A DNA stretch of 33,252 nucleotides from Actinomycetota bacterium (GCA_013697265.1 JACCXE010000102.1:1-33252); one strand, 5' to 3'. Positions 5,864 to 33,252 are shown, counted from the stretch's first letter. Numbers and translations are program-made. The notes: a model not told the origin generated them from the letters alone.

Positions 5864-7663
5864 ATGGCGATACCCCCCGTCCCGGGCAAGAAACTCAACC
5901 GGGCCAAAGCCGCTCCGAAAAAGCAACCCCAACACTCCGCGTCGGCGAAGAAAAAGGCCGCGGCGAAGCAGGGTGCTGCGCGCAAGGTGCCCGTCAAGGC
6001 GACCTCTCGTGAGCGGGCCGAGACCGCGAAACAGTCGCCCAAGCCACGCCCGGTAACGCAGTCGCAGCCAAACGCGCGCAGAGTCCCGGTTCCGCCCGAC
6101 AGTCCGATTCCCGTCGTGGCTGGCAAGGCGAAGAGGCACCACGCGCACAAGGGGCTGCACCGCGCCTTGATCGGTATGAACGTCTTTCTGGTGTTGTGCG
6201 TTGTGGCCACCGGCGGCGGCTATGCGTATTTGAAGTTTCGCCTCGGCCAGCTCGACCGCATCTCCATCGGCTGCGCGCTGCGCAACTGCGGCGCCGACGA
6301 CCCCGACGAGCCTATGAACGTGCTGCTCGTCGGCTCCGACACCCGGGCGAACATCTCCAAAGCCGAGCAAGCCAAGTTCGGCAACGAGGCCGACGTCGGT
6401 GGCGAACGCACCGACACGATGATGGTGCTGCACGTCGACCCGAGGGCCGAGAAGGCGTCAATCCTCTCCATTCCGCGCGACCTCTACGTGCCGATCGCGG
6501 GCACGAGGATCACCGACCGGATCAACACCGCATTCGCGTTGGAGACCAACGCGCGCTCGACCGCAACGACTAGGTCGAAGGCCACGGCGACCACGAGCCT
6601 CGCCGGAGGCTCGACGATCCCGGCCTCGGCGATAAAGGATGGCGCCTCGCGCCTGATTGCCACCATCCGTCAGAACCTCGGCATCGAAATCGACCACTAC
6701 ATGGAGGTCGACTTCAACAGTTTCCGCTCGATCGTGAACGCGGTCGGAGGCGTCACCGTTCCGTTTCCGGCGCCGGCCCGCGACAAGTTGGCCGGCCTCG
6801 ACGTGAAAACGGCGGGCTGCGTAGCTCTCAGCGGTGACCAAGCCCTGGCCTACGTGCGCAGCCGTCACTTCCAGTACTTCGAAAGCGGTCGCTGGCGAAC
6901 GGACCCCACTGGTGACATCGGCCGCATCCAGCGGCAGCAAGACTTCATTCGGCGCATGCTGCGCAAGGCGATCAGCAAGGGTGCGCGTAATCCGATCAAG
7001 CTGAACTCGTTGATTAATGCCGGCGTGGGCAACGTGAAGCTTGACTCCGCGCTGTCGAGCAAAGACTTGTTCCGGATCGGTAAGCAGTTCAAGTCGCTGG
7101 CGCCCGAAGCGGTCGACATGTTGACCCTGCCGGTCGACGATTTCCGCACGTCGGCCGGAGCCGCGGTGCTCAAGGTTCGCTCTGCTGACGCCCGCGAGAT
7201 CGTCGACCGGTTCAACGGGGTTGGCCAAGAACCCGCGACGACGCCGGCTGGGGCCATCCCCAATATTTCGCCGGTCCAAATCAGGGTTCTCGTACTCAAC
7301 GGCACCGGCGTGAACGGCCAAGCCGGCCAGGTACAGCGATCGTTGTCCGGCGTTGGTTTCGGCACCGGTGGAGTGGGCGATGCGCCCGGCGGCTTCGGCA
7401 AGGCGAACACCGAGATCCGCTACGGCGAAGGGCAATTGCAGAAGGCGCAGGTGCTCGAGGCTTACGTCGTGGGCGGGGCCAAGCTCGTGAAAGACACAAC
7501 GCTCAAGGGAGGCGACATCCAACTGATCGTGGGTGGCGGCTACGGCGGCATCCGGTCCACGTTGAAGCCGGTGACCGGTTCGACGTCGAGCATTCCCGCC
7601 ACCACCAGCACCACCCGCGGCCCCGTTCCCACTCCTAAGGGCGCCGCCGCCCTCGCCTGTTAG
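5864..7663 (+). CDS. LytR-CpsA-Psr (LCP) family glycopolymer-peptidoglycan ligase with C-terminal LytR_C-like domain
   Basis: A Lys/Ala-rich cytoplasmic tail is followed by a TM segment ([19 protein letters not shown]). LCP core: '[79 protein letters not shown]'. The C-terminus has '[16 protein letters not shown]'. The exact start is uncertain. Confidence 0.9.
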
Positions 7664-8561: not shown

Positions 8562-8563
8562 GC

Positions 8564-8944: not shown

Positions 8945-8970
8945 GGGCCCGAAGTAGCCTCTACGGCTCT

Positions 8971-9936: not shown

Positions 9937-9938
9937 CC

Positions 9939-14383: not shown

Positions 14384-14395
14384 CGTCGCCGGGCT

Positions 14396-15127
14396 ATGGG
14401 TAAGGCCTCGAACGCTAAAAAAGTCAACCGCGCTGCCGCAACCGGCGGCGGCCGCACGGCAGGAAAGCGCACTCCGGTGCTGTGGTATTCCGCCATTTTC
14501 ATGGTCGTCGTGATTGGTGTGCTCGGCGTCGCCCTGTCCTCCAAGAACATCGCCGACAAGCAGGCCTCGGCTGAGGTCACGCCGCCGACGAAGAAAGACC
14601 ACTGGCACGCGGCCTACGGCTTCAACCTTTGTGGCGAGTGGGCCAGCGCGTTGAACGACGGCGCCGCGGGCGACACCACCGGCATTCACACCCACGGCGA
14701 CGGCCTGATCCACACGCACCCGTTCCTCAATTCGGTCACGGGCAAGAACGCAACGTTCGGCAAGCTGATGAAGATCACCGATACCGCGGTCACCGCGACG
14801 TCGGTTGACCTCAAGCGTGACAATGAGAAGTTGAAGAACGGCGACAAGTGCGGCAGCAAACCGGGCGTGCTGACGGCCCGCAGCTTCAAGAACCTCGAGG
14901 ACAAAGCGGGCACCGAGCTCAAGGGCAGTCCGTCGGCATGGAGGATCAAGGACGGCACGCTGATCACAATCAGCTTCAACCCCAAGGGCTTCAAGGTCGA
15001 GCAGCCGCCGTCGGCCGGCAACCTGTCGGACCCCAAGGACCTCGGTCAAACTCCCCAGCCGACCCCGGCTTCTACCCCGGCGCCCACCTCGGAGACCACC
15101 TCGGCCCCGCCAACGTCGGCTCCGTGA
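14396..15127 (+). CDS. hypothetical membrane-anchored protein with His/Cys cluster and Pro/Thr-rich tail
   Basis: The TM segment is VLWYSAIFMVVVIGVLGVAL. The cluster is 'HWHAAYGFNLCGEW...GIHTHGDGLIHTHPF'. The C-terminal tail is QTPQPTPASTPAPTSETTSAPPTSAP. Codon bias is consistent with the neighbouring genes. Confidence 0.5.
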   Translation: MGKASNAKKVNRAAATGGGRTAGKRTPVLWYSAIFMVVVIGVLGVALSSKNIADKQASAEVTPPTKKDHWHAAYGFNLCGEWASALNDGAAGDTTGIHTHGDGLIHTHPFLNSVTGKNATFGKLMKITDTAVTATSVDLKRDNEKLKNGDKCGSKPGVLTARSFKNLEDKAGTELKGSPSAWRIKDGTLITISFNPKGFKVEQPPSAGNLSDPKDLGQTPQPTPASTPAPTSETTSAPPTSAP

Positions 15128-17698: not shown

Positions 17699-18657
17699 AA
17701 AGACGAGTTTGCCGCGGCCAGTGCAACCCGGGCCAAAGCAGCCGCGTCCTGGGGCGTGCGCATGACGGTCGGTGCGACCACGCAACGCATGCCCGCGTCT
17801 TGGACGGCACCGGCCAGGTCGCGGTCGGCTTCGTCGATCACCAGCGTTGCCGCAAGGTCGCGATACAGCCGAGCGACGCCTACCACCGACGCGTCATGGC
17901 CGAGTTCGCGCAGCATGCGATCGGCCGGGCCCTTGAGCGCGAGGCCGGCGACAATCGGCGAGATGGCGACCGAGGATGCCCGGCGGGCCGCGAACGCGTC
18001 GCGCACACCCGGAACCGCCAGAGGAGGCCCGATCGACACGATCGGGTTGGAGGGACAGATCACCACGATGTCGGCCTCGGCGATGGCGTCGAGCACTCCG
18101 GGCGCGGGGCGCGATGCGTCGGCGCCCGCGAAGCGCACTGACTCGACGGTGACGTTGTGCTGCCGCCCGACGAAATACTCCTGAAAGCCGATCTCGCCTT
18201 CGCCGGCGACGGTGACCCGAGTCTCGAGGGGATCGTCGGTTACCGGCAACAGGTGAAGCTGTAGCCCCCACGCCCGCGTGATCTCGCCGGTGACCTCACC
18301 CAGCGTCAGTCCGTCGCGCAACCGCTGGGTGCGGTACAGGTGGGTCGCGAGGTCTTGGTCGCCGAGTCGGAACCAGGTGAGGTTCTGTTGCAACGCGGCC
18401 CCGTAGCGGTCGAGGGCGGCCATGGCGTTCCACGTTTCGCCCATGAGGCCCCAACCCGTGTCCGGGTTCACCGCGTTGGCCAACGTGTAGGTGATGGTGT
18501 CGAGGTCGGGCGACACGTGGAGGCCGTGGAGCGTGACGTCGTCGCCCGTGTTCACGATTGCGGTGACCGACGACGGCTCGACGACTTGGACCACGCCGCG
18601 CAGCATCTTCGCGGCGCCCACCCCACCCGCGAGCGCGCAGACCCGCGGCGGGGTCAC
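17695..18657 (-). CDS. cofD: 2-phospho-L-lactate / EPPG transferase (FbiA/CofD)
   Basis: 'VCALAGGVGAAKMLRG', 'IVNTGDD..HGLHVSPDLDT', 'VVICPSNPIVSIGP'. The GTG start overlaps the upstream stop (GTGA). Confidence 0.92.
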   Translation of the reverse strand: MTPPRVCALAGGVGAAKMLRGVVQVVEPSSVTAIVNTGDDVTLHGLHVSPDLDTITYTLANAVNPDTGWGLMGETWNAMAALDRYGAALQQNLTWFRLGDQDLATHLYRTQRLRDGLTLGEVTGEITRAWGLQLHLLPVTDDPLETRVTVAGEGEIGFQEYFVGRQHNVTVESVRFAGADASRPAPGVLDAIAEADIVVICPSNPIVSIGPPLAVPGVRDAFAARRASSVAISPIVAGLALKGPADRMLRELGHDASVVGVARLYRDLAATLVIDEADRDLAGAVQDAGMRCVVAPTVMRTPQDAAALARVALAAANSSL

Positions 18658-20786: not shown

Positions 20787-20790
20787 GTCC

Positions 20791-23340
20791 TTATCTTGAC
20801 CGCTTGCGCAGCCTCCCGGGTACGCGCCTGGCAAGGCCAAGCGGTCCGTAGTGCCGGTATGTGCGGTATGAGCGCCACAGGAACGCCCGCATCCGGCGGT
20901 ACTGCATCCGCATCGGCGGCGGTAACGCCATGCTCCAGCGGCGCGGCAATTCGTCGGCCTCGAGCGGCAATTCGTAGGCCTCGAGCGGCCGGTTGACGTA
21001 GGGCTCGCTGGGCGCGACCACATCGGTCCATGCCGATGCTCGCGTCGCGGGCTGAATCGATTCCAAGATCGACAAGTAGGTGCGCGCCTGTAGGTGGGGG
21101 GACCAACGCAGCAACGCGTCGCGTCGTGCCCGCGCACCGAGGCGGTGGCGCCGCACCTCGTCGTCGAGTAATGCGTTTAGCTCGTCGGTCCAACCCTGGG
21201 GCGTGCTCGCCAGCACCCCGTTGACACCGGAGGCGATGGCTTCGCGGAACGGTTCGGTAGGTGAGGCGACGGTCGGGGTGCCGACGAGGGCGGCTTCTAA
21301 GCACTTGATCGCGCTCTTGGCCTCGTTGAACCGGCTGCCGGGCGTGAGAGGCGCAAGGTTGATGTCGAGGTCGCGCAAGACGGTCGGAAGTGCGGTCCAC
21401 TCCGTGAAGCCGAGCCGTCTCACCCGGTCGCCGAAGCGGTCAAGAGAGGCCGACGCGGCAACCAGACCAACGAGCCATAGTTCGACGGACGGGTGCGCGT
21501 CCAACGCAGCGATCACCGAAGCCTCGATCATCGCCCAGTCGTGATCGTGGGTATTGGTACCCGACAGGTATCCCATGCGAACGGGCCCGGGCGCTCGATC
21601 CTGCCGGGCCGCGGCGTCGCTTTGCTGACCGGTGAGCAGCCCCACGCCGTTCGCGAAGCGGAACGCAGCCAAACCGGTGACGGCGTTGGCATGATCGCAA
21701 AGCCCGATGGTTGAACCGATGAACGCATCGCACGCTTCGAGCGTTGTCCGGTAACGACGTACTCCCTCGAGCCACAGCGCGGCATCGTCGGGCGGCAGGA
21801 TCGTGAGCGCAGGGATCTCAGACGCGAGGTCGGGGTCGAAGATCAGATCGTCGACGTCGTAGGCCACCGGCACGCCCCGGCGGCGAGCGTCGCCGATGAT
21901 TTCCAGCACCTCCCGGGTCGCCGGCACCCGATAAACCACGATCGCATCGGCGTGCGCCGCTAATTCCGGCACGGAAGCGTCGCGGTAATGACGAACGTCG
22001 GCATGTACGCCCGCAAGCGAGAGGGCCTCGGCTGGCAAAAATGCGCGATAGCGCAGCGGCGCGCCGTCGATGCCGACGATAAAAAGAACTCGGCCGATCT
22101 TCGGCGTGCTCGACACCGTCGTGTCCGGCACCGTTTGCCCAAGCTCGCCGTATAAGTCGAGCAACCCGTCTACCTGATCCGTGATGGCACGGACGGGCAC
22201 GGCGGTCGCTTCGCGCCGCATCGCACTCAGCAACGCGTCGTCGGCGACCACGCGGCGCATCGCCTCGGTCAGAGACGAGGGGTCTGCTGCTGGCACCACC
22301 AGCCCGTTCACTCCGTCGGCCACTACTTCCTCTGGGCCCAGCGTGTCGGTGCAGATCACCGGCACCCCTGCGCTCAGCGCCTCCCGAGTTACCAGGGAGT
22401 GGGACTCGCGCATGATGCTCGGCAAAAGCAACACGTCGGTTGCCGCCCACACCGCGGCCGCTTGGTCGGGTGTAAAGGCGGGCACGCTCTGCACTGGGAG
22501 CCCGGCGAGTGATACGTCGTTGGCCACGAGGAAGTCCTCGAGGTCGTGCGCGATCATGCGCCAACCTGTGGGTACCGCAGCCGCGAGTTCGCGCGCGGCC
22601 TCCACTACCACTCGCGCTCCCTTCATCTCATTCCAACCGCCGGTATAACGGAACGTCACTCCGGCGTGCGAGGCACGCGTCGGCGGCGCAATCTCCGTCA
22701 CCTGATCCAGACCGTTCTCGTCCACCCGTAGCTTCGTGGGGTCTACGCCGTTCGCTGCCATCACGTCCGCCGCGCTCTTGGACACGCACAACAGGACGGC
22801 GGCGCGTTCCAGCGCGTCGCGCAATCGAGCGTTGCGCAAGCCAAGCCAATGATGATCGACCTCACACGGGCAGATCCCGGCGTCCACCACCAGCATGCAC
22901 GGCCGGTAGGTGCGGTCGGCGAGGAATTGCCGGGCACAGCACCACCAGAAGTCGTGCATGGTGACAACAACGGGAATTCCGGCGTCGGCCGCGGCCTCCA
23001 CGACGCCGACGCCAATTGCCTGGCACGAGTGGACATGCACAACGTCCGGGCGGATTCGCGTCAACCACTGGCGGTAGTCCGCTGTCACTACGGGGTTGTC
23101 GATGTTGTTCGCGTCCGACCAACCGACCCACGGATGGATCTCGATCCACCGAACGGGAAAACCGCTCTCGTCCTCGGCGTCCCAGGTCTGGCCCGCCGGA
23201 CGGGTGCGGTCGAAGGAGCCGGCGTATACGGACACCTCATGGCCTCGGGCGTGCATCTCCTTAGCAAGCCGCTGGGGCGCGAGGGAACCACCGGAAATGA
23301 AGTTTGGCGGGAAGTGCGCCGTGACGACAGCGATGCGCAT
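20791..23340 (-). CDS. 849-aa glycosyltransferase with two GT-B (GT4-like) modules and a basic C-terminal tail
   Basis: The N-terminal module has 'MRIAVVTAHFPPNFISGGSLAP..' and 'RESHSLVTREALSAGVPVICTD..GVNGLVVP' (EX7E). The second module has 'RVLFIVGIDGAPLRYR..' and 'NEAKSAIKCLEAALVGTPTVASP..GVNGVLAS'. The tail is rich in R/Y/W. Its stop lies 4 nt before the SpoIID start. Confidence 0.85.
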   Translation of the reverse strand: MRIAVVTAHFPPNFISGGSLAPQRLAKEMHARGHEVSVYAGSFDRTRPAGQTWDAEDESGFPVRWIEIHPWVGWSDANNIDNPVVTADYRQWLTRIRPDVVHVHSCQAIGVGVVEAAADAGIPVVVTMHDFWWCCARQFLADRTYRPCMLVVDAGICPCEVDHHWLGLRNARLRDALERAAVLLCVSKSAADVMAANGVDPTKLRVDENGLDQVTEIAPPTRASHAGVTFRYTGGWNEMKGARVVVEAARELAAAVPTGWRMIAHDLEDFLVANDVSLAGLPVQSVPAFTPDQAAAVWAATDVLLLPSIMRESHSLVTREALSAGVPVICTDTLGPEEVVADGVNGLVVPAADPSSLTEAMRRVVADDALLSAMRREATAVPVRAITDQVDGLLDLYGELGQTVPDTTVSSTPKIGRVLFIVGIDGAPLRYRAFLPAEALSLAGVHADVRHYRDASVPELAAHADAIVVYRVPATREVLEIIGDARRRGVPVAYDVDDLIFDPDLASEIPALTILPPDDAALWLEGVRRYRTTLEACDAFIGSTIGLCDHANAVTGLAAFRFANGVGLLTGQQSDAAARQDRAPGPVRMGYLSGTNTHDHDWAMIEASVIAALDAHPSVELWLVGLVAASASLDRFGDRVRRLGFTEWTALPTVLRDLDINLAPLTPGSRFNEAKSAIKCLEAALVGTPTVASPTEPFREAIASGVNGVLASTPQGWTDELNALLDDEVRRHRLGARARRDALLRWSPHLQARTYLSILESIQPATRASAWTDVVAPSEPYVNRPLEAYELPLEADELPRRWSMALPPPMRMQYRRMRAFLWRSYRTYRHYGPLGLARRVPGRLRKRSR
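20943..20984 (-). repeat. 21-bp tandem duplication (2 copies, 20/21 identical) inside the 849-aa GT gene
   Basis: gcggcaattcgtcggcctcga | gcggcaattcgtaggcctcga encodes LEAYELP/LEADELP on the minus strand. A partial third unit (gcggc) follows. Confidence 0.9.
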
Positions 23341-23379: not shown

Positions 23380-24204
23380 ATGGCGTCAGTCTCGGAGCTG
23401 GTAGAGGCGCGCGAACTGTTCCGCAACCTCACCCTGCGTGAACTGCGCGGAAAGTACAAGCAGTCCACGTTGGGGTGGGCGTGGTCGATGATCAACCCCC
23501 TCGCGACCATGCTGATTTTCGCGGTGATCTTTCATTACGTGCTCAAGGTGGAGCCGCCCACCGGCAAGCCTTCCGGGCTGCACAGCTTCCCGTTCTTTCT
23601 CCTCTGCGGACTGTTGCCATGGAACTTCCTGTCCGTCGGCTTGACCGCGGGGATGGGTGCGCCGTTGGCCAACGCCGGCCTTATCAAGAAGGTCTACTTC
23701 CCACGAGAGGTGCTGACCGCATCGGTGGTCACTTCGTGGGCGGTGCAGTTCGCGATCGAACTGGTGGTAGTGGTTATCGCGTTTCTGTTCGTAGGCAACG
23801 TAACGTTCCAGTGGCTGCCTGCCGTGGTGATGGTGATCCTGATTCAGACCGTCTTCGTGTATGGCCTTGCCTTGGGTTTGGGTGCCATCAACGTGTATTT
23901 CCGCGACGTCCAGCATTTCCTCGGCATCGCGATGCAGTTGTGGTTCTACGCGACGCCAATCGTGTATCCGATCACGCTCATTCCCGCCCACGCCAAGCTC
24001 TTCGGCCATAGCCTGCCCATGAGAGCGCTGTATGAGCTCAACCCGATGGTGCGGTTCGTCGCGATGTACCGCGACCTGCTGTACAACTTGCGGTGGTTCT
24101 CGCTCGCCGACTTCCTCTACGTCACCGGCGTCGCCGTCGTCACGCTTGCGATCGGCCGCGGCATCTTTCTCCGTCTTGAACCTCGCTTCGCGGAGGAACT
24201 ATGA
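23380..24204 (+). CDS. wzm: ABC-2 type polysaccharide export permease (Wzm/TagG-like)
   Basis: 'LRELRGKYKQSTLGWAWSMINPLATMLIFAVIF' is the ABC-2 entry motif. About 6 TM segments follow. Confidence 0.9.
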   Translation: MASVSELVEARELFRNLTLRELRGKYKQSTLGWAWSMINPLATMLIFAVIFHYVLKVEPPTGKPSGLHSFPFFLLCGLLPWNFLSVGLTAGMGAPLANAGLIKKVYFPREVLTASVVTSWAVQFAIELVVVVIAFLFVGNVTFQWLPAVVMVILIQTVFVYGLALGLGAINVYFRDVQHFLGIAMQLWFYATPIVYPITLIPAHAKLFGHSLPMRALYELNPMVRFVAMYRDLLYNLRWFSLADFLYVTGVAVVTLAIGRGIFLRLEPRFAEEL

Positions 24205-25424
24205 GCGAGGTCGCTGTTAGCGCTGAGCACGTCTCGAAACGGTTCCGTCTCTATCACGAGCGCAATAATTCGTTGAAGGTCACCCTCATGCGGCGGGGAC
24301 GGGCGAAATTCGAAGAGTTCTGGGCGCTCGACGACGTGTCGCTCGAGGTGCCGAAGGGCACCACGTTTGGCCTCATCGGCGAGAACGGGTCAGGAAAAAG
24401 CACGCTCCTCAAGTGCATGGCGAAAATCCTGCACCCTGATAAGGGCATCACGAACGTAAACGGCAAGGTGTCAGCGCTGCTCGAAGTAGGCGCCGGCTTT
24501 CACCCTGAGCTTTCCGGCCGCGACAATATCTATCTGAACGGATCGATCCTCGGCCTGTCGAAGAAAGAGCTCGACGCCAAGTTCGACACCATCGTGGAGT
24601 TCGCCGGTCTCGAGCAGTTCATCGACGCGCCCGTGAAGAACTACTCGTCGGGCATGTACGTGCGCCTCGGCTTCTCGGTTGCGATCAACGTCGAGCCCGA
24701 CGTTCTGCTCGTCGACGAAGTCCTCGCCGTGGGCGACGAGAACTTTCAGCGCAAGTGCGGTGAAAAATTTGCCGAGCTGCGCGAGCAGGGCAAAACGATT
24801 GTGGTCGTGAGCCATGCACTCGGCACAATGCGCAACCTGTGTGATCACATTGCGTTGCTCGATCACGGCGTGCTGAAGAAGGTCGGCCCGGCGACCGAAG
24901 TGATCGACAACTACGTGTCAGGCACCCACACTGATCGCATAGCCGACGGTGACGCCGACGCCCGATGGGGCTCGGGTGAGGCCCGTATCGACAAGATCGA
25001 AATTCTCGGCCTCAACGGCCAGCCCACGTCCATCGTTCACACCGGCGACCGTTGCACCTTCCGGTACCACTACTCGACGACGGAGGCGATCAAACGGCCT
25101 GTCTTCGGCCTCGCCGTTTCCACCGTGGACGGCACCCTGGTTGCGGGCCCGAACACTCGAGACGCGGGCGCTGTTCCCGAAAAGATCGACGGCACCGGCC
25201 ACGTCGATCTCACGGTCAGCAAGCTGCTTTTGCTGCCTGGGCGATACAGCATCGATGTCGGGATTTTCGATTTCACCTGCGTGCACCCTTTTGACTTTCG
25301 GCAACACGCGCTGCGCTTCGACGTCGAGGCCGGCCAACCCCATGACACTCAGGGCTTGGTGTCGCTCGACGGCACGTGGACGGTCAACGGCGCCACCCTG
25401 CGCCTGACACCGGATTCGCCGTAG
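24201..25424 (+). CDS. wzt: polysaccharide export ABC ATPase (Wzt/TagH-like) with C-terminal extension of about 160 aa
   Basis: Walker A 'GENGSGKSTLLK', signature 'YSSGMYVRL', Walker B 'LLVDEVLAVGD'. An extra beta-rich domain spans aa ~250-407 (GEARIDKIEILG..GDRCTFRYHY..GRYSIDVGIFD), like Wzt C-terminal glycan-binding domains. ATGA overlap with wzm. Confidence 0.9.
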   Translation: MSEVAVSAEHVSKRFRLYHERNNSLKVTLMRRGRAKFEEFWALDDVSLEVPKGTTFGLIGENGSGKSTLLKCMAKILHPDKGITNVNGKVSALLEVGAGFHPELSGRDNIYLNGSILGLSKKELDAKFDTIVEFAGLEQFIDAPVKNYSSGMYVRLGFSVAINVEPDVLLVDEVLAVGDENFQRKCGEKFAELREQGKTIVVVSHALGTMRNLCDHIALLDHGVLKKVGPATEVIDNYVSGTHTDRIADGDADARWGSGEARIDKIEILGLNGQPTSIVHTGDRCTFRYHYSTTEAIKRPVFGLAVSTVDGTLVAGPNTRDAGAVPEKIDGTGHVDLTVSKLLLLPGRYSIDVGIFDFTCVHPFDFRQHALRFDVEAGQPHDTQGLVSLDGTWTVNGATLRLTPDSP

Positions 25425-25430
25425 CGCACG

Positions 25431-26810
25431 ATGAAGATCGTCGTCATCACCAACGACGCGCTCGGCGCTCGCATGGCCGGTCCCGCGATCCGCGCGTCCA
25501 AGATCGCCGGCGTCCTCTCCAAGGCCGGTCACAACGTAACGCTGTTCACTACCGGCTCCTGCGAACCGTTCGACGCGCCGTACGCGACGAAGCACGGCTG
25601 GACCGACGAATTGAAACTGCTCGAAGCGTGGTGCGACGTGGTCGTGTTCCAGGGCTTTGTGATCGACGGGCAGCCCTGGCTAATTCATACCGACAAGGTG
25701 ATGGTGGTCGACCTGTACGACCCATTTCATCTTGAGCAACTCGAACTGTCCCGTGAGGCCGCCGAACACGACGTGCGCGTCGAGGTTGTCGCGTCCACGG
25801 TCGCCGTGCTGAACGAGCAGATGGCGCGGGGCGACTTCTTCCTCTGCGCCAGCGAGAAGCAGCGCGACTTTTGGCTTGGCGCGCTGGCCGCGCTCGGCCG
25901 GGTCAACCCCCTCACGTACGACGCCGACCCGTCGCTGCGGTCGCTCATCGACGTTGTGCCCTTCGGTGTGGACGACGAACCTGCCCGCCAGGTCAAGCAC
26001 GCGATTCGCGGCGTCGTTGACGGCATCGGCGTCGACGATGACGTTTTGTTGTGGGGCGGCGGCGTTTACAACTGGTTCGATCCGCTCACGCTGATCCGCG
26101 CCGTCGACGCGGTTCGCGACCGGCGCCCGAACGTGCGCCTCTACTTCCTCGGCATGAAGCACCCCAACCGTGAGGTGCGCCAAATGCGAATGGCCACCGA
26201 AGCCATGGCATTGGCCGGCGACCTCGGTCTCACCGGCAAGCACGTGTTCTTCAACTACGATTGGGTGCCCTACGAACAGCGGGCGGACTGGCTGCTCGAC
26301 GCCGATATCGGAGTGAGCACACACCTGGATCACGTCGAGACCGCGTTCTCCTTCCGCACCCGAATGCTTGACTACCTGTGGGCGGGATTGCCAATCGTGT
26401 GCACCGCCGGTGACTCGATGGGTGAACTCGTCGCCGAGCATGAACTGGGGACGGCGGTGCCGCCGGGTGACGTCACGGCGTTGGCCGACGCGCTCAACGC
26501 GCTGCTGGGCAATGATGCGCGCCGGCAAACCGCAGCAGCGGCGGTGCGCGCCATCGCGCCCAACTTCGCATGGAGTAGCGCGCTCGCCCCGATTGTCTCG
26601 TTTTGTGCCAGCCCGCGGCGGGCGCCCGACCTCGTCGATCGCGAGACTTCGGGCCGCCTGGCAGCCGTGGCCCGACGCGCCGGCCGGCAGCGACGCGGGC
26701 TCGCACACGCAGTGGCATCGGTTCGTCGGCACACGCGCAACGGGCGGCCCGGCGACGTAATGAAAATGGGCGTTCGCCGGGTGGCGGAGCGGTTTCGCGC
26801 CCGTTTCTAA
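25431..26810 (+). CDS. GT-B fold glycosyltransferase, paralog of the C-terminal module of the 1186-aa protein
   Basis: MKIVVITNDALGARMAGPAIR.., 'LLWGGGVYNWFDPLTLIRAV', 'ETAFSFRTRMLDYLWAGLPIVCT'. It is collinear over about 400 aa with aa ~700-1090 of ORF 26848..30408. Confidence 0.8.
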   Translation: MKIVVITNDALGARMAGPAIRASKIAGVLSKAGHNVTLFTTGSCEPFDAPYATKHGWTDELKLLEAWCDVVVFQGFVIDGQPWLIHTDKVMVVDLYDPFHLEQLELSREAAEHDVRVEVVASTVAVLNEQMARGDFFLCASEKQRDFWLGALAALGRVNPLTYDADPSLRSLIDVVPFGVDDEPARQVKHAIRGVVDGIGVDDDVLLWGGGVYNWFDPLTLIRAVDAVRDRRPNVRLYFLGMKHPNREVRQMRMATEAMALAGDLGLTGKHVFFNYDWVPYEQRADWLLDADIGVSTHLDHVETAFSFRTRMLDYLWAGLPIVCTAGDSMGELVAEHELGTAVPPGDVTALADALNALLGNDARRQTAAAAVRAIAPNFAWSSALAPIVSFCASPRRAPDLVDRETSGRLAAVARRAGRQRRGLAHAVASVRRHTRNGRPGDVMKMGVRRVAERFRARF

Positions 26811-26847: not shown

Positions 26848-29800
26848 GTGCAATGGTTGCGCTCCCAGAGCTTTGACCTCTACGGTCGCTACTCGCATGT
26901 GTGGCTGATCCGCACGCAAAGCCTGCCCGCGGCACCGCTGCGCATCCTCGACGTAGGGGACCCGTTCGGCACAATCGCGTCAATTTTCCCGGACGATCAC
27001 ACCTTCAGCCTCGACATCTACAGCGACAATCCGCCGACCGACGGCGTCCATCAGCACTTGATCGGTTCCGGGTTCGAACTGCCATTTGTCGACGCAAGCT
27101 TCGACCTCGTATGCACCCATGACGTTCTCGAGCACATCCCGGCCGCTCGCCGTACCGAGTTCATCGCCGAACTATTGCGCGTGAGCGCGGGACCGGTCGT
27201 GCTTGTTGCACCCTTCGCTGATGAACGGTTGGTGCGTGTCGAGCACCTGGTCAACTCCTATTTCGTCGCCAAGCTCGGACACACGCTGTCCGCCCTCGAC
27301 GAGCATTCACAGTGCGGTTTACCTGACCCTGTCCAGATCGTCGCGTGGTTGGAGGGGACCGGAACTCCCTTTGCGCGTTTTGGCGACGGGTGGCTTTACC
27401 ACTGGGTGGCGCTCTACTACCTCAAGGCGCACATGCTGTCGCGTGGTGCCGAAGGCCAGCTCCACGCCCTCGACCGGGCGTGCAACGAGTTGTTGCTCGA
27501 CGTCGACCACACCCAGCCGCACTACCGCACCACCTTGGTTTTGCGGCCACCGGCGAGCGTCCCCGAACTGCCGTCGTGGACGCCGCCTCCACCGCCCGAG
27601 CAGCTGCACGCTGAAGTCGACGAGCTCACTGAACTCGCCATGTCGTTGAGTGAAGCACTGGTGCCTACCGAGGATCCGGCTGCGCGGGATAGGAATGTCG
27701 CGGCGTGGATCGCGGCCCGCGCCGCGTCGTCGAGTCCGGCGCAGCAGCTGCTGGCATCGTCGCTCACCGTTGTCCTTGACAAGCTTCGCGAGATTTCGGC
27801 GCGGGACGTGCTTTCCATCGAGTCCCCGTCGGCGGACCCGGCGACCTGCCCGCGCATCGCGGTGGTGATGGTCAGCTTCAACGGCATCGACCACCTCGTG
27901 CCGTGTCTCGAATCACTGCGAGCACAGGACTATCCGGCGGAACTTACCGAAGTCATCGTGGTCGACAACGGCTCGACGGACGGTTCCCTTGAGCTGCTCG
28001 AACGTGAATACCCGTGGGTCAGGGTGCTACCCCAGGGCCACAACACCGGCTTCGCAGTCGCTGTAACCGTTGGTGTCGCCGCGGCCACCGCCGAGTGCGT
28101 CGCCTTCATCAACAACGACATGCGCGCCGACCCGGGCTGGCTCCGGGCGCTCGTTGCCGCGTACGACCCCGACCACGGAGTGGTGTGCGTGGCGGGACAG
28201 ATCCGCAGCTGGGACGGCGAGCGCGTCGACTTTGTCGACGGCGTCATGAACTTCTATGGCATGGGCAGCCAGGTCGGTTATGGCAAACCGCTGGATGCCG
28301 TAGACGTGCGTGACGGGCAGCCGTTGTTATTCGCGTGCGGCGGCTCCATGTTGGTGAGCCGCCACATCTACTTGACTTCAGGTGGCTTCGATCCGGCGTT
28401 CTTCGCCTATTTCGAAGACGTCGATTTCGGGTGGCGGTTGTGGCTGCTCGGCTACGAAGTGCGTTTCGCCGAGGACGCGATCACATACCACCGCATGCAC
28501 GGCACCTCGTCGCGCTTTGCGCTGCACCAGCGGATGGTGCTGTACGAACGCAACGCGCTGCGCTCCATCATGAAGAACTACGGCGACGACACGCTGTCGC
28601 AGGTGCTGGCCCCTGCGCTGTTGCTTCTGATGACCCGCGCCGTCGAACGCGGTGAACTGGCTAAGCAGCGCGATGCATACGAGCCAGGCGGCGATGTCGA
28701 GGCGACCGAAGTGGTCCCGCGCGTCACGCTGTCTCACCTGCACGCCGTGAACGACTTGGTGCACGACCTCGACGCGCTCGTTCCCGAACGAGCGCGGATC
28801 CAACGCGCTCGAAAGCGTGAAGACAGCGAAATCGTCGAGTTGTTCGGAACACCCTTCGCGCCGGTGCTCCACGACCCTGATTATGAGGATGTCCAGCGCA
28901 AGCTGATCGACGGTTTCGGCTTGGCCGAAATGTTCCAAAGGCATCGCGCCAGCCGCGTGCTATGCGTCTCCGCGAACGAGATCGGCGAGGAGATGAGTGG
29001 GTCGAGCATCCGCACATTCGAGATCGCCAAGGCGCTGTCGTCGACGACCCATGTCGCTGCAGCGGCGCCGGGGGAAACCGACTACCTCGTCGACGACCTT
29101 GCCGTTCTGCGCTACTCCGACGAGGCGACGTTGGTAAGCCTGGCCGCCAACAGCGAAGTCGTCTTGATCCAGGGCCATCAGCTGCGCGAGTTCCCAAGAC
29201 TGGCGAACCTTTCGAGCGTCCTCGTGATCGACCTCTACGAACCGTTCCTGTTCGAGAACCTCGAGTTGCACGGTGAGAGCGCGGCCGCCGATCTCGCCTT
29301 GCGCCAAGACGTGTCCGTGCTCAACGAGCTGCTCGACGCCGGCGATTATTTCATCTGCGCATCTGAGCGCCAGCGCGATTACTGGCTCGGCATGCTGAGC
29401 GCGCGCGGCAAGATCGACTCGGCCACCTACGCCGCCGATCCCACCTTGCGTCAGCTGATCGACGTCGTGCCCTTCGGCCTACCCAGCCACAAGCCGCGGC
29501 ACCCTCACAACGTTCTCAAGGGCGTGCATCCTGCTGTCGGCGAAGACGATCTCGTGGTGTTGTGGGGAGGCGGTGTGTGGGATTGGTTCGACCCGCTATC
29601 CGTCGTCGAGGCGTTCAATCTCGTTCTGGACCGCGTCCCGAACGCCAAGTTGTACTTCCTCGGACTACACGTACCGAGTGTCGACGCGCCGTCGATGAAA
29701 ATGGCCGACGCGGCATTGTTGCGGGCCAAGGAGCTCGGCCTGTACGACACGTCGATCATCTTCGGCGACTGGGCTCCATACGAGATACGCGAGGCCTTCC

Positions 29801-30408
29801 TGCGCGAATCTGACATAGCGGTGTCGTCAGCGAAAGATCTCGCCGAGACCCGTCTCGCCTTCCGAAGCCAGATCCTCGACTACCTATGGGCGGGCCTGCC
29901 CGTGGTGACGACGACCGGCGACGTGTTGGCCGATCTCGTGGAGCGTCACGCGTTGGGTTTGGTTGTGCCGCCCGGTGACGTCAACCGACTCGCGGCGGCG
30001 ATGGTCGACCTGTTGAGCGACGCCGGGCGCCGTGCCGAAGTCTCGGCACGCGCCGTCGCGGTGGCCGACGGCCTTCGGTGGGCCAATTGCGTCGCTCCGC
30101 TTCGCAAGGTCGTTCTGGAGCCGTGGAGATGGCGCCTCGCCCGGGGGGCGCGAGAGCGCCGCCGCCTAGTGACGCAAGACCTGCAAATTATGCTCGACGA
30201 CCGCGACGCGGAGTTGGATCGTGTGCGGGCCAACAACGACGAGTTGCGGGCTAACAACGACGAGTTGGTGTTCCTGCGTCAGCACGCGGCCGAACTCGAA
30301 GCGATCGTGGCCCACAAAGACCGGCCGTACGCGTTGGCCCGCAAGGCTCCGGGCGCACGCAGCCTGGCCGCGCTACTCCGCCGCGTGCGGCGATACCTCA
30401 GCGCCTAA
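26848..30408 (+). CDS. multidomain protein: class-I SAM methyltransferase + GT2 + GT-B glycosyltransferase + C-terminal heptad segment
   Basis: MTase motifs are 'LRILDVGDPFG' and 'FDLVCTHDVLEHIP' (nt ~26935-27240). GT2 motifs are 'IAVVMVSFNG..VIVVDNGSTDGS..GHNTGFAVAV..INNDMRADPGW..FEDVDFGWRLW' (nt ~27850-28500). GT-B motifs are 'VLWGGGVWDWFDPLSVVEAF..ETRLAFRSQILDYLWAGLPVVTT' (nt ~28950-30120). The tail is 'DRDAELDRVRANNDELRANNDELVFLRQHAAELEAIV'. It is a single uninterrupted ORF. The GTG start at 26848 is uncertain. Confidence 0.85.
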   Translation: MQWLRSQSFDLYGRYSHVWLIRTQSLPAAPLRILDVGDPFGTIASIFPDDHTFSLDIYSDNPPTDGVHQHLIGSGFELPFVDASFDLVCTHDVLEHIPAARRTEFIAELLRVSAGPVVLVAPFADERLVRVEHLVNSYFVAKLGHTLSALDEHSQCGLPDPVQIVAWLEGTGTPFARFGDGWLYHWVALYYLKAHMLSRGAEGQLHALDRACNELLLDVDHTQPHYRTTLVLRPPASVPELPSWTPPPPPEQLHAEVDELTELAMSLSEALVPTEDPAARDRNVAAWIAARAASSSPAQQLLASSLTVVLDKLREISARDVLSIESPSADPATCPRIAVVMVSFNGIDHLVPCLESLRAQDYPAELTEVIVVDNGSTDGSLELLEREYPWVRVLPQGHNTGFAVAVTVGVAAATAECVAFINNDMRADPGWLRALVAAYDPDHGVVCVAGQIRSWDGERVDFVDGVMNFYGMGSQVGYGKPLDAVDVRDGQPLLFACGGSMLVSRHIYLTSGGFDPAFFAYFEDVDFGWRLWLLGYEVRFAEDAITYHRMHGTSSRFALHQRMVLYERNALRSIMKNYGDDTLSQVLAPALLLLMTRAVERGELAKQRDAYEPGGDVEATEVVPRVTLSHLHAVNDLVHDLDALVPERARIQRARKREDSEIVELFGTPFAPVLHDPDYEDVQRKLIDGFGLAEMFQRHRASRVLCVSANEIGEEMSGSSIRTFEIAKALSSTTHVAAAAPGETDYLVDDLAVLRYSDEATLVSLAANSEVVLIQGHQLREFPRLANLSSVLVIDLYEPFLFENLELHGESAAADLALRQDVSVLNELLDAGDYFICASERQRDYWLGMLSARGKIDSATYAADPTLRQLIDVVPFGLPSHKPRHPHNVLKGVHPAVGEDDLVVLWGGGVWDWFDPLSVVEAFNLVLDRVPNAKLYFLGLHVPSVDAPSMKMADAALLRAKELGLYDTSIIFGDWAPYEIREAFLRESDIAVSSAKDLAETRLAFRSQILDYLWAGLPVVTTTGDVLADLVERHALGLVVPPGDVNRLAAAMVDLLSDAGRRAEVSARAVAVADGLRWANCVAPLRKVVLEPWRWRLARGARERRRLVTQDLQIMLDDRDAELDRVRANNDELRANNDELVFLRQHAAELEAIVAHKDRPYALARKAPGARSLAALLRRVRRYLSA
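30226..30267 (+). repeat. 21-bp tandem duplication (2 copies, 20/21 identical) inside the 1186-aa gene
   Basis: cgggccaacaacgacgagttg | cgggctaacaacgacgagttg encodes RANNDEL RANNDEL. Confidence 0.9.
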
Positions 30409-30413
30409 CTTCG

Positions 30414-31397
30414 TTAGGACACGTCGGTAGTCGACGGAGTTGTGGTCGCCGGAGTCGTGGTCGGCGAGGTCGCCGGTGTGGTGGTTGTGGCGGCGACTCC
30501 CGATGTGGTCGGGCGCTTGACTGGAGTGGTCGTCGAAAACCGCTTCGTCGTGGTGGTGGTGGTGGTGGTGGTCTCGTCGAACAAAGTCGTGCTCGTCGGG
30601 GTGGTCTGCAACGTGCGATCACACAGGCAGCCCGAACCGGGCGAGATCTCGATGATTTCGCGGGAGTGGATGTCCAGGATTCGCAGGGTGTCGAGGGCGC
30701 GCGCCGCCGGCACCACGATCACGAGACGGCGCTGGGAAAAGTCGGCCCATTCCTCGCCGCGGTACTTGGGCCTCGTGGCCGGTTCGGGGGCGGTGAGCGG
30801 GCTTCCGCTCGCGCAGCGCGTGCGGGGCAGCCCCTGGCTGTCGACGAGCACCGCTGTGCCCTTCTGAAGGACGGACTGGAACCCCACGTCTCGGTTGTTG
30901 AGCAAGCCATGGTCGGTGACCCGCGTATCGCTGCGCACGAACACGGATGTGAGCTCGCCGACGAAGGCGGTGATGTCGTCGACCGAGAGCTTGGCTCCGC
31001 CGCTCCACTGCAGCGTGGTGTCGTCGTTCAGTGCGTCGACCCAAGCCTGGGCTCTGTCACCGTCGTCGCCGAGCAGCGTCACGAGTGCGGTGGTGTCGCA
31101 GACCGGTTGCGACGCCGACCCGGCGTAGAGCCCCGCCGTCGACCCCCGCACCGACCTGATCCCGTTTTTGCCGCTCGCCCCCGCAATGGAGCCGGTCCCG
31201 ATGTCGGGCACCGCGGAAAACGCGACGCTCTTGGTGAATGGATTGCGCCCGACTACCGACAGCGCCTCGAGAAAGATCTCACCGGCTTTAGGGTGACCGG
31301 GGTCGCCGGCGCTGGACTTGTTTGAGGCGTTGTTACAGCCGGCGCCTGCGAACGCCACCGCGACGAACGCGAAAATAAGAAGTCGGAATTGACGCAT
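30414..31397 (-). CDS. probable secreted lipoprotein with Thr/Pro-rich C-terminal tail
   Basis: MRQFRLLIFAFVAVAFAGAGC has a signal peptide with a Cys in lipobox position, though the lipobox is non-canonical (G at -3). GGGGGA lies 4 nt upstream of the ATG. The C-terminal ~65 aa are mostly T/P, including T9. Confidence 0.6.
   Translation of the reverse strand: MRQFRLLIFAFVAVAFAGAGCNNASNKSSAGDPGHPKAGEIFLEALSVVGRNPFTKSVAFSAVPDIGTGSIAGASGKNGIRSVRGSTAGLYAGSASQPVCDTTALVTLLGDDGDRAQAWVDALNDDTTLQWSGGAKLSVDDITAFVGELTSVFVRSDTRVTDHGLLNNRDVGFQSVLQKGTAVLVDSQGLPRTRCASGSPLTAPEPATRPKYRGEEWADFSQRRLVIVVPAARALDTLRILDIHSREIIEISPGSGCLCDRTLQTTPTSTTLFDETTTTTTTTTKRFSTTTPVKRPTTSGVAATTTTPATSPTTTPATTTPSTTDVS
30550..30572 (-). 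repeat. trinucleotide microsatellite (ACC)7 encoding poly-Thr
   Basis: The plus strand reads gtggtggtggtggtggtggtggt. On the minus strand this is ACC x7 followed by ACG ACG, giving T9 in the lipoprotein tail. Confidence 0.9.
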
Positions 31398-31421: not shown

Positions 31422-32453
31422 CTAAATCGTTCCGTCGTCGACAGCTTGCACGATCCAGGGCACCACTTCGTCCAGCATCTCGCCGAGCGAGGTGGTTGCC
31501 TCGAAGCCCAGAACCTGCTTCGCCTTGTCGGTGGCAGGCACCCGCTTGGCCACGTCGTGTTCGAAACCGGGGTCGCTCACGTAGTTGAACGGCCGCCCGT
31601 CTTTGTGCACCTTGTTCCAGATCACCTCGGCCAACTCGAGCACCGACGTGGACTGCGCGGTGGATAGGTTGAAGTCGTTGTTCAACGCGTCCGGGTGAGC
31701 CATGGCGTCGACGATGCCACGGGCCAGGTCACCGCCGTAGGTGTAATGCCGGACCTGCGAGCCGTCGCCCAGGATGTGCAACGGGTCTTGGCCCTTCACG
31801 ACTTTCTGCACGAGGTCGGGTACCACGTGGCTCATGGCGAGTTTCACGTTGCCCGACATCACGTCGACATCACCCAGCGCCCGGCGCTCGCCGATGCCGA
31901 CGCAGTTGAAGGGGCGCACGATTGTGTACGGCAACTTGTACTGGTCCCACGCGGCGCGGGCGAAGTACTCGACCGCCAGCTTTTGGAAACCGTACGACGA
32001 CAGGGGCGGTGCGATCTTGCGCTCGTCGCCCTCGGCGCTGGGCCAGTGCTCGGTCGACTCGAACACCATCGATGAGCTCATGTACGTGACCTTCTGGAGG
32101 CGCCCGGCCTTGTGTGCCTCGATCGCCGCGTCGCAGGTCGATCCCATGATCCGCTCGTTCTGGGCCAACAGGTCGTAGGCGTAGGTGTGAAAGTACGAGA
32201 TACCGCCGATCAGCGCGGCGCCGGCGATGAGGTGATCCACCTCCATCGCCGTGGTCGTCATCAAGTCGATGTCGCGGCAGTCACCCTCGATGAAGGTGTA
32301 GTTCGCGTCGCTGTCGTAGCTCTTGGTGACCTGGCCGTACTTGCTGAGGTTGTCGACGCCGACCACCCGGTAGCCGCGGCTGAGGAGCTCTTCGACGATG
32401 TAACCGCCGATAAAGCCGGCCGAGCCGGTGACAAGAACGGTTTCGCTGTTCAG
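31422..32453 (-). CDS. NAD-dependent epimerase/dehydratase (extended SDR), proposed CTG start
   Basis: The ORF track starts at 32366, but the same frame upstream reads LNSETVLVTGSAGFIGGYIVEELLSRGYRVVGVDN, which contains the Rossmann GxxGxxG. There is no ATG/GTG/TTG between the in-frame TGA (32482-32480) and that motif. The CTG at 32453 overlaps the upstream stop (CTGA) and follows GGAAGGA. YxxxK is 'YGFQK'. Confidence 0.78.
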   Translation of the reverse strand: MNSETVLVTGSAGFIGGYIVEELLSRGYRVVGVDNLSKYGQVTKSYDSDANYTFIEGDCRDIDLMTTTAMEVDHLIAGAALIGGISYFHTYAYDLLAQNERIMGSTCDAAIEAHKAGRLQKVTYMSSSMVFESTEHWPSAEGDERKIAPPLSSYGFQKLAVEYFARAAWDQYKLPYTIVRPFNCVGIGERRALGDVDVMSGNVKLAMSHVVPDLVQKVVKGQDPLHILGDGSQVRHYTYGGDLARGIVDAMAHPDALNNDFNLSTAQSTSVLELAEVIWNKVHKDGRPFNYVSDPGFEHDVAKRVPATDKAKQVLGFEATTSLGEMLDEVVPWIVQAVDDGTI

Positions 32454-33208
32454 GGTGTTTCCTTCCGGGCGCTTTTCGCGCGCACTTGTTCAACGTTGAG
32501 GGGCGGGCCAAACGCGAACCGGTACCAGTGCAGGTAGCGCAGCAGCCACGCGGCGAGCTTGAAGTTACTGACACCGAACGTGCGGTCGAGCCAGATCGTC
32601 GGCAACTCGGCGACGGGCAGCCGCATACGCCGGGCCTTGGCCACGAGCTCGATGCCGACCTCGAACCCGTCGTCGCTGTCGATGCCTACTTCCTGGACGA
32701 AGCTGCGCTTGTAAGCCTTGAACGAGTTGGTGGCGTCGTTCGTGCCGACCCGCGCCAACAGGTGTAACGAACGCCCAGCCAAACGTGACAGAGCGGTCTT
32801 GAACGCGGGGCCGCCGACTTGTTGGCCGCCGCGCATATAACGCGACGCGGCTGCGACGACGACACCGCGTTCGACCAGGCGGGTCAGGGCGTCGATCTGC
32901 TGGGGGTCGTCGCAGCCATCGGCCATCGTGACCACCACGACATCAGCGCGGGCGTGGTCGATGCCGTAGCGGATCGCACGGGCCGGGCCCCGTCCGTAGG
33001 TGTTCACTGTCGGCACGAGGCGCGGTTCGCTGTGGGCGTACTTCTCGATCCACGGCATGGTGGAGTCGTCGCGGCTGTCGCAGACCACGAGCACCTCGCA
33101 CGGCAGCGTGACGGTTTCGAAAATGCGATCAAGGTGGGGCAGGATCGCGTCGCCCTCGTCGTATGCCGTTACCACGACGGAAACCCGCGGTTCGCCCGCC
33201 TGCTTCAT
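32450..33208 (-). CDS. GT2 polyprenyl-phosphate glycosyltransferase-like (DPM1/GtrB/PpgS class)
   Basis: 'RVSVVVTAYDEGDAI..EVLVVCDSRDDST..VVVTMADGCDDP..AASRYMRGG..NDATNSFKAYKR..AELPTIWLDRTFGVSNFK' is collinear with DPM1/GtrB-type enzymes. The start is ATG 33208 or the upstream GTG 33238. Confidence 0.78.
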   Translation of the reverse strand: MKQAGEPRVSVVVTAYDEGDAILPHLDRIFETVTLPCEVLVVCDSRDDSTMPWIEKYAHSEPRLVPTVNTYGRGPARAIRYGIDHARADVVVVTMADGCDDPQQIDALTRLVERGVVVAAASRYMRGGQQVGGPAFKTALSRLAGRSLHLLARVGTNDATNSFKAYKRSFVQEVGIDSDDGFEVGIELVAKARRMRLPVAELPTIWLDRTFGVSNFKLAAWLLRYLHWYRFAFGPPLNVEQVRAKSARKETP

Positions 33209-33252
33209 ACCTGCGTGCTCGCGCCGGTAAAGCCCCACACGTCTACGAGCGG

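Follow-up and report, generated by a model that had tools for sequence, protein, structure and literature searches.

How capping governs the export of glycans through Wzm/Wzt transporters is understood in detail for the O antigens of Gram-negative bacteria and for a single S-layer glycan of a Firmicute; to our knowledge, it has not been studied for the wall glycopolymers that are attached by LCP enzymes in actinobacteria. Here we describe a locus that bears on this gap, contained in a 33,252-nucleotide stretch of DNA from an Actinomycetota bacterium (GCA_013697265.1 JACCXE010000102.1:1-33252), the whole of which is called the window below. A single gene of the window (26848..30408, + strand) encodes a protein of 1186 amino acids (aa), hereafter the target, in which a methyltransferase, two glycosyltransferase (GT) modules and a helical, basic tail follow one another. 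The first-pass annotation of this DNA, made from the sequence alone, knew of no characterised system with such an architecture. Precedents exist in WsaE, in ORF6 of Klebsiella pneumoniae O7 and in WbbB of O12, and the target is an uncharacterised actinobacterial member of an already characterised type of multi-module glycan-assembly enzyme.

By analogy, WsaE, a protein of about 1100-1200 aa, is the closest characterised counterpart of the target. This enzyme of Geobacillus stearothermophilus NRS 2004/3a was described as 'trifunctional', with an N-terminal methyltransferase and two rhamnosyltransferase domains (PMC2943079, PMC3898925, PMC9415975). Its gene lies immediately after wzm-wzt in the slg S-layer glycan cluster, which also contains rml genes (PMC2943079, PMC3898925). 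The methyltransferase makes a terminal 2-O-methyl cap, recognition of this methylated end is predicted for Wzt, and WsaE works with a separate GT4 enzyme, WsaF (PMC2943079, PMC3898925, PMC9415975).

In K. pneumoniae O7, ORF6 is a single chain in which a methyltransferase-kinase and a coiled coil are joined to two GT2 modules, and it depends on a further, stand-alone GT; WbbB of O12 holds all activities within one chain (PMC11231755). In the characterised molecular rulers, the terminator is found at the coiled coil's distal end, away from the GT modules. The chain-termination strategy is widespread across bacteria, and the split of modules between single- and multi-module proteins is flexible (PMC11231755). 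How a cap is read was described for Aquifex aeolicus, where the Wzt_C domain binds a 3-O-methyl-mannose/rhamnose cap whose attachment halts elongation (PMC9445017).

Architecture of the target and its operon

The target open reading frame (ORF) comprises 1186 codons from a GTG start and contains no internal stop, which confirms the uninterrupted frame of the first-pass annotation. A Shine-Dalgarno-like GGTAGG lies 9 nt 5' of the start, and the N-terminus aligns residue by residue with homologs beginning MQxLRSQSFD. Third-position GC (GC3) is uniformly high (0.80) along this single frame. An NCBI entry annotated just 'glycosyltransferase' matches the protein at 100% identity; it belongs to an Actinobacteria MAG (metagenome-assembled genome), and its contig is the window. 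Forty-five further homologs (1146-1224 aa, 46-82% identity) were recovered from many independent metagenomes; all 45 come from uncultured Actinomycetota/Acidimicrobiia and keep the three Pfam domains in the order of the target. One of them (P0003, 70% identity) is encoded on a 4.1-Mb contig, in a locus (L081) that is gene-for-gene syntenic with the window and reads cofE, cofD, SpoIID, double-GT4 (minus strand), wzm, wzt(+Wzt_C), GT-B, target homolog, DUF6777, epimerase and GT2. Since about 45 independent homologs share the architecture, one of them in this syntenic locus, the fusion of methyltransferase and GT modules is genuine and not an assembly artefact.

An AlphaFold2 model of the target, built on the 45 homolog sequences, resolves three globular modules with confidence, together with one long helix (mean predicted local distance difference test score, pLDDT, 83.6; predicted template modelling score, pTM, 0.60). 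Pfam and AlphaFold2/Foldseek agree on the identity of the methyltransferase, GT2 and GT-B modules that had been proposed earlier, and every motif then quoted for the first two is present in its place. The N-terminal domain (aa 1-245; 26848..27582, +) is a class I S-adenosylmethionine (SAM)-methyltransferase according to Pfam, a PDB profile search and AlphaFold2/Foldseek. After a short linker, a GT2 (GT-A) module, extended by helices at its C-terminal end, occupies aa 335-700 (27850..28947, +). Glycos_transf_2 (PF00535) covers aa 339-499 (86 bits, 3e-24) and Glyco_tranf_2_3 covers aa 335-562; matches to chondroitin synthase, ppGalNAc-transferases and other GT-A enzymes were found in the PDB and by Foldseek. 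The module contains VVDNGSTDGS (aa 371-380), NNDMRADPGW (aa 422-431) and FEDVDFGWRLW (aa 522-532), and VVD373NGS and NND424 (nucleotide-binding Asp, DXD-type) are conserved among homologs. The second GT module (aa 701-1094; 28948..30129, +) is a GT4-like GT-B of two Rossmann domains, with Pfam matches in its C-terminal half to Glyco_trans_1_4/Glycos_transf_1 (PF13692/PF00534) at aa 919-1068 (46/34 bits). Foldseek returned the retaining GT4 enzymes MshA, GlgM, BshA and WaaG (TMt 0.65-0.75), a likeness by fold and not a CAZy assignment.

The target is the last gene of an operon. It follows wzm, which encodes an ABC-2 permease (PF01061; 23380..24204, +), wzt (24201..25424, +), and a gene for a free-standing GT-B of 459 aa (25431..26810, +). 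Successive genes are separated by -4, 6 and 37 bp, and the arrangement is conserved in L081. The gene had been placed directly downstream of wzm-wzt, a statement that must be corrected because the 459-aa GT-B gene (25431-26810) intervenes. In contrast, the extension of Wzt, described as having the length of a carbohydrate-binding module (CBM), proved to be a bona fide Wzt_C domain (aa 254-388; PF14524, E=9e-29) behind the nucleotide-binding domain (PF00005). The best PDB match of the window Wzt is the full-length A. aeolicus Wzt (8dku, 3e-64).

By Pfam and alignment, the 459-aa protein is a paralog of the second GT module of the target: it is 42% identical (E=7e-93) to aa 703-1094. It was also considered as an ortholog of WsaF; a PDB sequence search gave distant GT4 enzymes and not WsaF. 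Divergently from wzm, across an intergenic region of about 40 bp, lies a gene for an 849-aa protein (20791..23340, −) with two GT4 modules in a WbdA-like layout (two stretches of Glyco_trans_1_4 + Glyco_transf_4). This protein is conserved in L081 and may be a second polymerase or an adaptor. Because of the GT-B paralog upstream and the divergent double-GT4 protein, the target is probably not the sole polymerase, and the single-polypeptide polymerase put forward at first is doubtful.

Relatives of the target in distant phyla

A scan of species-representative genomes gave at least 583 relatives of the GT2+GT-B part. A protein of about 830 aa that carries both GT modules and no methyltransferase is common (Cellulomonas, Lentzea, Saccharopolyspora, Microbacteriaceae, Blastococcus, Chloroflexota, Clostridiaceae), and its gene adjoins wzm-wzt in many loci. 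Fusion to the methyltransferase was seen in few lineages, namely in the window, L081 and L016, and in L001 in a frame-shifted state. The survey of fused versus split genes that had been suggested earlier had a divided outcome: the fusion holds in the window, L081 and L016, and the genes are split in Clostridiaceae bacterium 35-E11 and in low-GC Actinomycetota metagenome-assembled genomes (MAGs). The 459-aa GT-B of the operon shares 50-57% identity with the GT-B part of the widespread ~830-aa proteins, compared with 36-41% for the target module; these sequence identities hint at a history of duplication or domain shuffling.

In Clostridiaceae bacterium 35-E11 (L023), wzm and wzt(+Wzt_C) are followed in order by genes for a methyltransferase of 559 aa and a GT2+GT-B protein of 1030 aa, by an ORF of 197 aa and by a gene for a GT-B of 438 aa. 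The stand-alone methyltransferase (8283-9962) ends in a long C-terminal coiled coil of near-perfect 14-residue EKEELILAKDKAEQ repeats; its middle domain, of about 200 aa, is unannotated. In three low-GC Actinomycetota MAGs (L005-L007), two tandem paralogous methyltransferases are encoded between wzt(+Wzt_C) and the GT2+GT-B gene (9950-12226 in L005). Each bears a C-terminal extension of about 100 residues that is helical-looking and heptad-rich, and 32 extension residues of the first one pass a crude coiled-coil criterion. The tandem pair could correspond to two different caps or methylation sites.

The proteins of these split loci are uncharacterised. Their methyltransferases are homologous to that of the target (28-31% identity, with shared invariant residues), their GT2+GT-B proteins are 36-43% identical to the corresponding part of the target, and the order wzm, wzt(+Wzt_C), methyltransferase, GT2/GT-B is the same. 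They differ from the target in that the methyltransferase is separate and ends in a coiled coil of its own. In distant phyla, members of this family are encoded, as separate genes, directly after wzm-wzt(+Wzt_C) and before a GT2+GT-B gene, an arrangement in favour of the mechanism proposed in the Discussion. A conserved class I domain whose family sits in wzm/wzt clusters across phyla agrees with the terminator-type methyltransferase that had been proposed.

The methyltransferase family is large. With the N-terminal domain as query, an exhaustive HMMER search retrieved 1033 cluster representatives at E<=1e-10, a number that rose to 2496 at E<=1e-3, and size and architecture were surveyed among the best 150 matches. 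Of these, 107 are 300-780 aa long and 30 reach at least 780 aa. Long members combine the methyltransferase (MT) with GTs in several ways: MT-TPR-GT2-GT4, MT-GT2-GT2, MT-GT1-GT2, MT-GT1-GT1 and MT-GT1. The MT-GT2-GT2 form accounts for more than 100 clusters in Acidobacteria (P0299 belongs to this clade); here, coiled-coil-like segments separate the methyltransferase from the GT modules (aa ~290-390). Given these many GT combinations and the Acidobacteria clusters, fusion of a terminator-type methyltransferase to polymerase-type GTs is, as judged from sequence, a recurrent combinatorial theme and not a rare one.

These data allow the position of methylation to be weighed. The methyltransferase might decorate internal sugars of the repeat and give a methylated polysaccharide whose termination and length are set otherwise. 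This reading is favoured by the lack, in the target, of a coiled coil that could act as a ruler between methyltransferase and GTs, and by the two tandem methyltransferases of related loci, which could mean more than one methylation site. Among the short family members, though, a coiled-coil-like stretch follows the methyltransferase in 57/107 sequences versus 7/107 after shuffling, and a coiled coil is the marker of terminators (PMC11231755). Moreover, Wzt_C is present in 7/7 loci in which a methyltransferase of this family is encoded next to a Wzt, versus 24/43 Wzt loci without it (one-sided hypergeometric p~0.03); because the loci are not phylogenetically independent, this association is weak support. 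We regard internal methylation as unlikely. In the sister loci without methyltransferase (L002-L004), a crude ORF scan gave no alternative terminator genes.

The methyltransferase domain

Within the N-terminal domain, LRILDVGDPFG lies at aa 31-41 and FDLVCTHDVLEHIP at aa 85-98. Pfam Methyltransf_11 matches aa 69-112 (25.2 bits versus a cut-off of 21.2). In the AlphaFold2 models, the domain has a Rossmann-like fold of seven strands and a helical lid, with the strand order of class I enzymes (pLDDT 86.5 when modelled alone). Foldseek with the whole target model returned GT matches only, hence the N-terminal domain was searched separately; it then matched SAM methyltransferases (prob 1.0, template modelling score 0.5-0.6), including the sugar O-methyltransferases RebM and AtmM. 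A sequence profile against the PDB gave LahSB (3e-6) and AtmM (3e-3).

Motif I reads D35-V-G37-D-P39-F-G41 (DVGDPFG), in which the second Gly of GxGxG is replaced by Pro. This variant is nearly invariant across the fused Actinomycetota clade. The second Gly is also absent from the stand-alone homologs of low-GC Actinomycetota (DVGGYPG), and the Clostridiaceae stand-alone homolog has a different spacing (DIGGAGQD). D35, D56 (at the end of strand 2), G75, D92, E95 and H96, all at usual cofactor or catalytic positions, are invariant across three phyla. Mean pairwise identity within the family is 55% for the methyltransferase, 67% for GT2, 59% for GT-B, 33% for the linker and 36% for the tail; by this measure, the methyltransferase domain is constrained like the GT modules.

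The non-canonical motif I and the weak Pfam score could point to a catalytically dead fold, kept to give the GTs a scaffold or a module that binds the acceptor or the cap. We consider this quite improbable, since conservation equals that of the GT modules and the invariant acidic and His residues lie at the usual SAM/catalytic positions. Variation of the motif also occurs in the low-GC Actinomycetota stand-alone homologs, of which the methyltransferase is the sole catalytic domain, and the modelled structure matches active sugar O-methyltransferases. Because the motif variant is conserved, because the low-GC Actinomycetota stand-alone relatives likewise lack the second Gly, and because of the invariant residues and the GT-like conservation, we infer that the domain is an active enzyme.

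The linker and the C-terminal tail

The methyltransferase and GT2 modules are joined by a short helical linker (aa 246-334; 27583..27849, +). Its ~85 residues are poorly conserved (33% family identity) and form packed helices in the AlphaFold2 model (250-270, 283-292 and 297-315, pLDDT >85), followed by a disordered stretch (aa 319-330). No coiled-coil signal was detected in the linker with a 28-residue window criterion.

At the other end of the protein, a basic stretch precedes a single long predicted alpha-helix (aa 1095-1157; 30130..30318, +). AlphaFold2 draws one unbroken helix at aa 1092-1157 (pLDDT 55-67) and a last helix at aa 1170-1185. The segment aa 1105-1160 is rich in Leu and acidic residues and predicted to be helical, and had been called heptad-like. 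Its 3.5-residue hydrophobic periodicity is at chance level by Fourier analysis (z=0.2; 28% of shuffles are as good), the a/d occupancy measure is likewise negative, and not one coiled-coil-like 28-residue window was found anywhere in the target by a criterion under which related stand-alone methyltransferases do give a coiled-coil signal. These measures (a/d occupancy, Fourier periodicity and the stricter window criterion) are home-made and crude stand-ins for COILS/MARCOIL. Heptad periodicity is significant in the tails of some homologs (P0042, z=7.0; P0009, z=2.6), and the length of the long helix differs between homologs. In the window, a 21-bp tandem duplication (30224..30267, +; 2.1 copies, 95% match) doubles the heptad RANNDEL, which is single-copy in the closest homologs, so that the helix of the target is longer by exactly one heptad.

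The protein ends in a basic amphipathic helix (aa 1168-1186; 30349..30405, +), a candidate in-plane membrane anchor by its hydrophobic moment (0.66-0.69) and charge (+5). This feature is general: in 45/45 family members the last 35 aa have a net charge of +3 to +13 (median +9), and within them one stretch of 18 residues has a helical hydrophobic moment that ranks among roughly the top 1% of windows of the respective protein. The closest relatives without methyltransferase have retained the tail as well (the match in L002 extends over aa 335-1182), and hence it belongs to the GT part. It looks more like a membrane anchor with a spacer or oligomerisation helix than like a ruler.

These observations argue against a classic molecular ruler in which a coiled coil in the tail would set the distance between terminator and polymerase, and with it chain length, as the first-pass annotation had supposed. 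Such a ruler could draw on the long helix at aa 1092-1157, on the variation of helix length among homologs with the one-heptad step of the target, and on the heptad periodicity of P0042 and P0009. However, the tail is placed after both GT modules, which leaves terminator and polymerase on the same side of it, and for this reason it cannot serve as a terminator-polymerase ruler. In characterised rulers, the coiled coil parts a distal terminator from the GTs (PMC11231755). This geometry is absent from the target, with its packed linker, its lack of any coiled-coil window and its helix after the GTs. The chance-level periodicity of the target and the retention of the tail in relatives without methyltransferase, which makes it part of the polymerase, add to the doubt, and we give the classic ruler little credence. 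The target thus lacks the defining geometry of the ruler family yet probably works like a terminator-polymerase.

Finally, the idea that an assembly or frameshift error joined separate methyltransferase and GT genes, for which one could cite the metagenomic origin of the contig, the split arrangements of other lineages and the frame changes that break the related long-read MAG locus L001, is already effectively refuted by the continuous architecture of some 45 sequences of 1146-1224 aa from different samples, one of them on the 4.1-Mb contig, and by the uniform GC3.

Comparison with characterised systems

Like WsaE, the target carries an N-terminal SAM-methyltransferase followed by two GT domains in a single chain, and both are encoded in a Gram-positive ABC-transporter-dependent cluster with wzm-wzt and rml genes, although one GT gene intervenes after wzt in the window. 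The WsaE-dependent glycan is moved to the S-layer protein by an oligosaccharyltransferase, whereas the LCP ligase of the window suggests attachment to peptidoglycan. GT4 is a family of retaining enzymes. Both GT domains of WsaE make alpha-L-rhamnose linkages and are inverting, whereas the second module of the target is GT4-like and in this respect more like WsaF. WsaE was not among the named matches in homology searches made with the full-length target, the methyltransferase-domain profile or P0299.

A terminator and two polymerase GT modules also share one polypeptide in O7 ORF6 and in the WbbB of O12 and Raoultella (PMC11231755). The O7 system, like the window, includes an extra stand-alone GT, which in O7 completes the polymerase (PMC11231755). 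As here, the ABC transporters of O7 and O12 have a carbohydrate-binding domain (CBD); there it reads the cap, and the GT2 modules depend on deoxythymidine diphosphate (dTDP)-rhamnose (PMC11231755). [quoted passage not shown] Unlike ORF6, the target has no kinase and no internal coiled coil, and its long helix lies at the extreme C-terminus, after the GTs.

WbdD of Escherichia coli has a C-terminal helical region and a membrane-binding end, features that are also predicted for the target. The E. coli O9a/O8 system (WbdD/WbdA/Wzt-CBM) resembles the target in its methylation-based capping, with direct O-methylation in O8 (PMC3482155, PMC11231755). The coiled coil of WbdD separates the catalytic head from a membrane-proximal WbdA-binding site (PMC3482155, PMC11231755). 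Both systems have a C-terminal domain on Wzt and a two-module GT4 protein encoded in the cluster. In E. coli, however, terminator (WbdD) and polymerase (WbdA) are separate proteins, whereas in the target the GTs lie in cis between the methyltransferase and the helix. Four traits distinguish the target: the pairing of GT2 with a GT4-like module, the lack of a kinase, the lack of an internal coiled coil, and the helix with its basic amphipathic end.

Other genes of the window

The cluster had been assigned to a Gram-positive type on the basis of an LCP ligase and a WbbL-like GT, and both are present, together with rmlA/B/D. The LCP-family ligase (LytR_cpsA_psr + LytR_C) is encoded at 5864..7663 (+) and is followed by three genes of the dTDP-rhamnose pathway: rmlA (7680-8561, +), rmlB (8971-9936, +) and rmlD (9831-10775, +). 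An ORF at 8339-8944 (+), which overlaps the end of rmlA and ends just before rmlB, was considered as rmlC and rejected, as it gave only sub-threshold matches to MauE/DoxX-like membrane proteins. The WbbL-like GT2 (PF00535; 12987..13856, +) is a candidate linker rhamnosyltransferase; it reached 42 bits with the TIGR01556 rhamnosyltransferase model, under the cut-off. The upstream part of the window also encodes uridine diphosphate (UDP)-glucose dehydrogenase, epimerases and a ManC-like enzyme, then F420 genes, by which the organism can be recognised as an actinobacterium. Between the WbbL-like GT2 and the ManC-like gene, high-GC3 ORFs (13757-15253, −, and 14396-15127, +) have no Pfam match. Since the ManC match begins only at residue 94 of the longest ManC-like ORF, this stretch probably contains a 243-aa gene of no assigned function.

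Taken as its longest ORF (18654-21137, −), the gene for the SpoIID-domain protein runs about 350 bp into the 3' end of the double-GT4 gene. Since there is no such overlap in L081, where the ortholog has 709 aa, the window gene probably starts further downstream. On the other side of the operon, a DUF6777 protein (30414-31397, −; E=2e-45) is encoded convergently with the target, with 5 bp between the stop codons, in a neighbourhood conserved in L081. It is followed by an epimerase and a small GT2 (31422-33238, −) with weak resemblance to enzymes that transfer sugars to polyprenyl phosphate (ArnC, AglJ, dolichyl-P-hexose transferase). The corresponding region of L081 (14521-19378) continues after the epimerase/GT2 pair with UDP-glucose dehydrogenase and a protein of 605 aa that has no Pfam match. 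This group may be a system for extracytoplasmic addition of side chains.

Discussion

The reading that we favour, and hold to be moderately probable, is that the target is a peripheral-membrane multifunctional enzyme of an ABC-transporter-dependent pathway for a cell-wall glycan, in which terminator and polymerase modules act with a cap-reading exporter. The terminator, polymerase and exporter roles outlined in the first-pass annotation are thus plausible. In this pathway, the inverting GT2 and the GT4-like GT-B module would extend a polyprenol-linked glycan in the cytoplasm, in cooperation with the free-standing GT-B paralog and possibly the double-GT4 protein. The donor would probably be rhamnose and/or mannose, and the chain would probably be built on a WbbL-type linker. 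The N-terminal methyltransferase would then O-methylate the non-reducing terminal sugar. As the target has no kinase-like domain, a direct O-methyl cap, like those of E. coli O8, A. aeolicus and WsaE, is more likely than a methyl-phosphate. The cap would stop elongation and be read by the Wzt_C domain of Wzt, which would license export by Wzm/Wzt, and the LCP enzyme would ligate the exported chain to peptidoglycan. The long helix and the basic amphipathic helix may tether the enzyme at the membrane and possibly oligomerise it. Chain length would be set by competition between capping and elongation, tethered in cis at a 1:1 ratio, or by another factor.

What the analysis establishes is the identity and conservation of the domains, the gene order and the linkage to wzm/wzt across phyla, whereas we infer the catalytic activity, the donor sugars, the membrane anchoring and a terminal rather than an internal position for the methyl group. 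Several points count against this proposal. The Pfam score of the methyltransferase (25 bits) is just over the cut-off, and with Pro for the second Gly of motif I, SAM binding is not assured. The likeness to WsaE is one of architecture and context, sequence homology not being proven. When the Wzt_C domain alone was compared with the PDB, nothing significant was found (the best match, the Raoultella CBD, had E=0.27), so the specificity for the cap cannot be deduced from it. Likewise, rmlC was not found anywhere in the window, which leaves the donor sugar unproven.

A more specific version of the proposal is a terminator-polymerase that is tethered in cis and has no ruler: the coiled coil would have been lost on fusion, capping and elongation would compete at 1:1, and a helix that changes length by heptad steps would set, with its anchor, the height above the membrane. 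We assign this version a low probability. If true, it would represent a different route to wall-glycan chain length in a Gram-positive, LCP-linked pathway.

The practical value of the finding is modest, the organism being uncultured and the architecture having characterised precedents. For the biology of the family, a fused clade without intervening coiled coil and split relatives that keep one form a natural series in which ruler and stoichiometry can be set against each other in the control of chain length.

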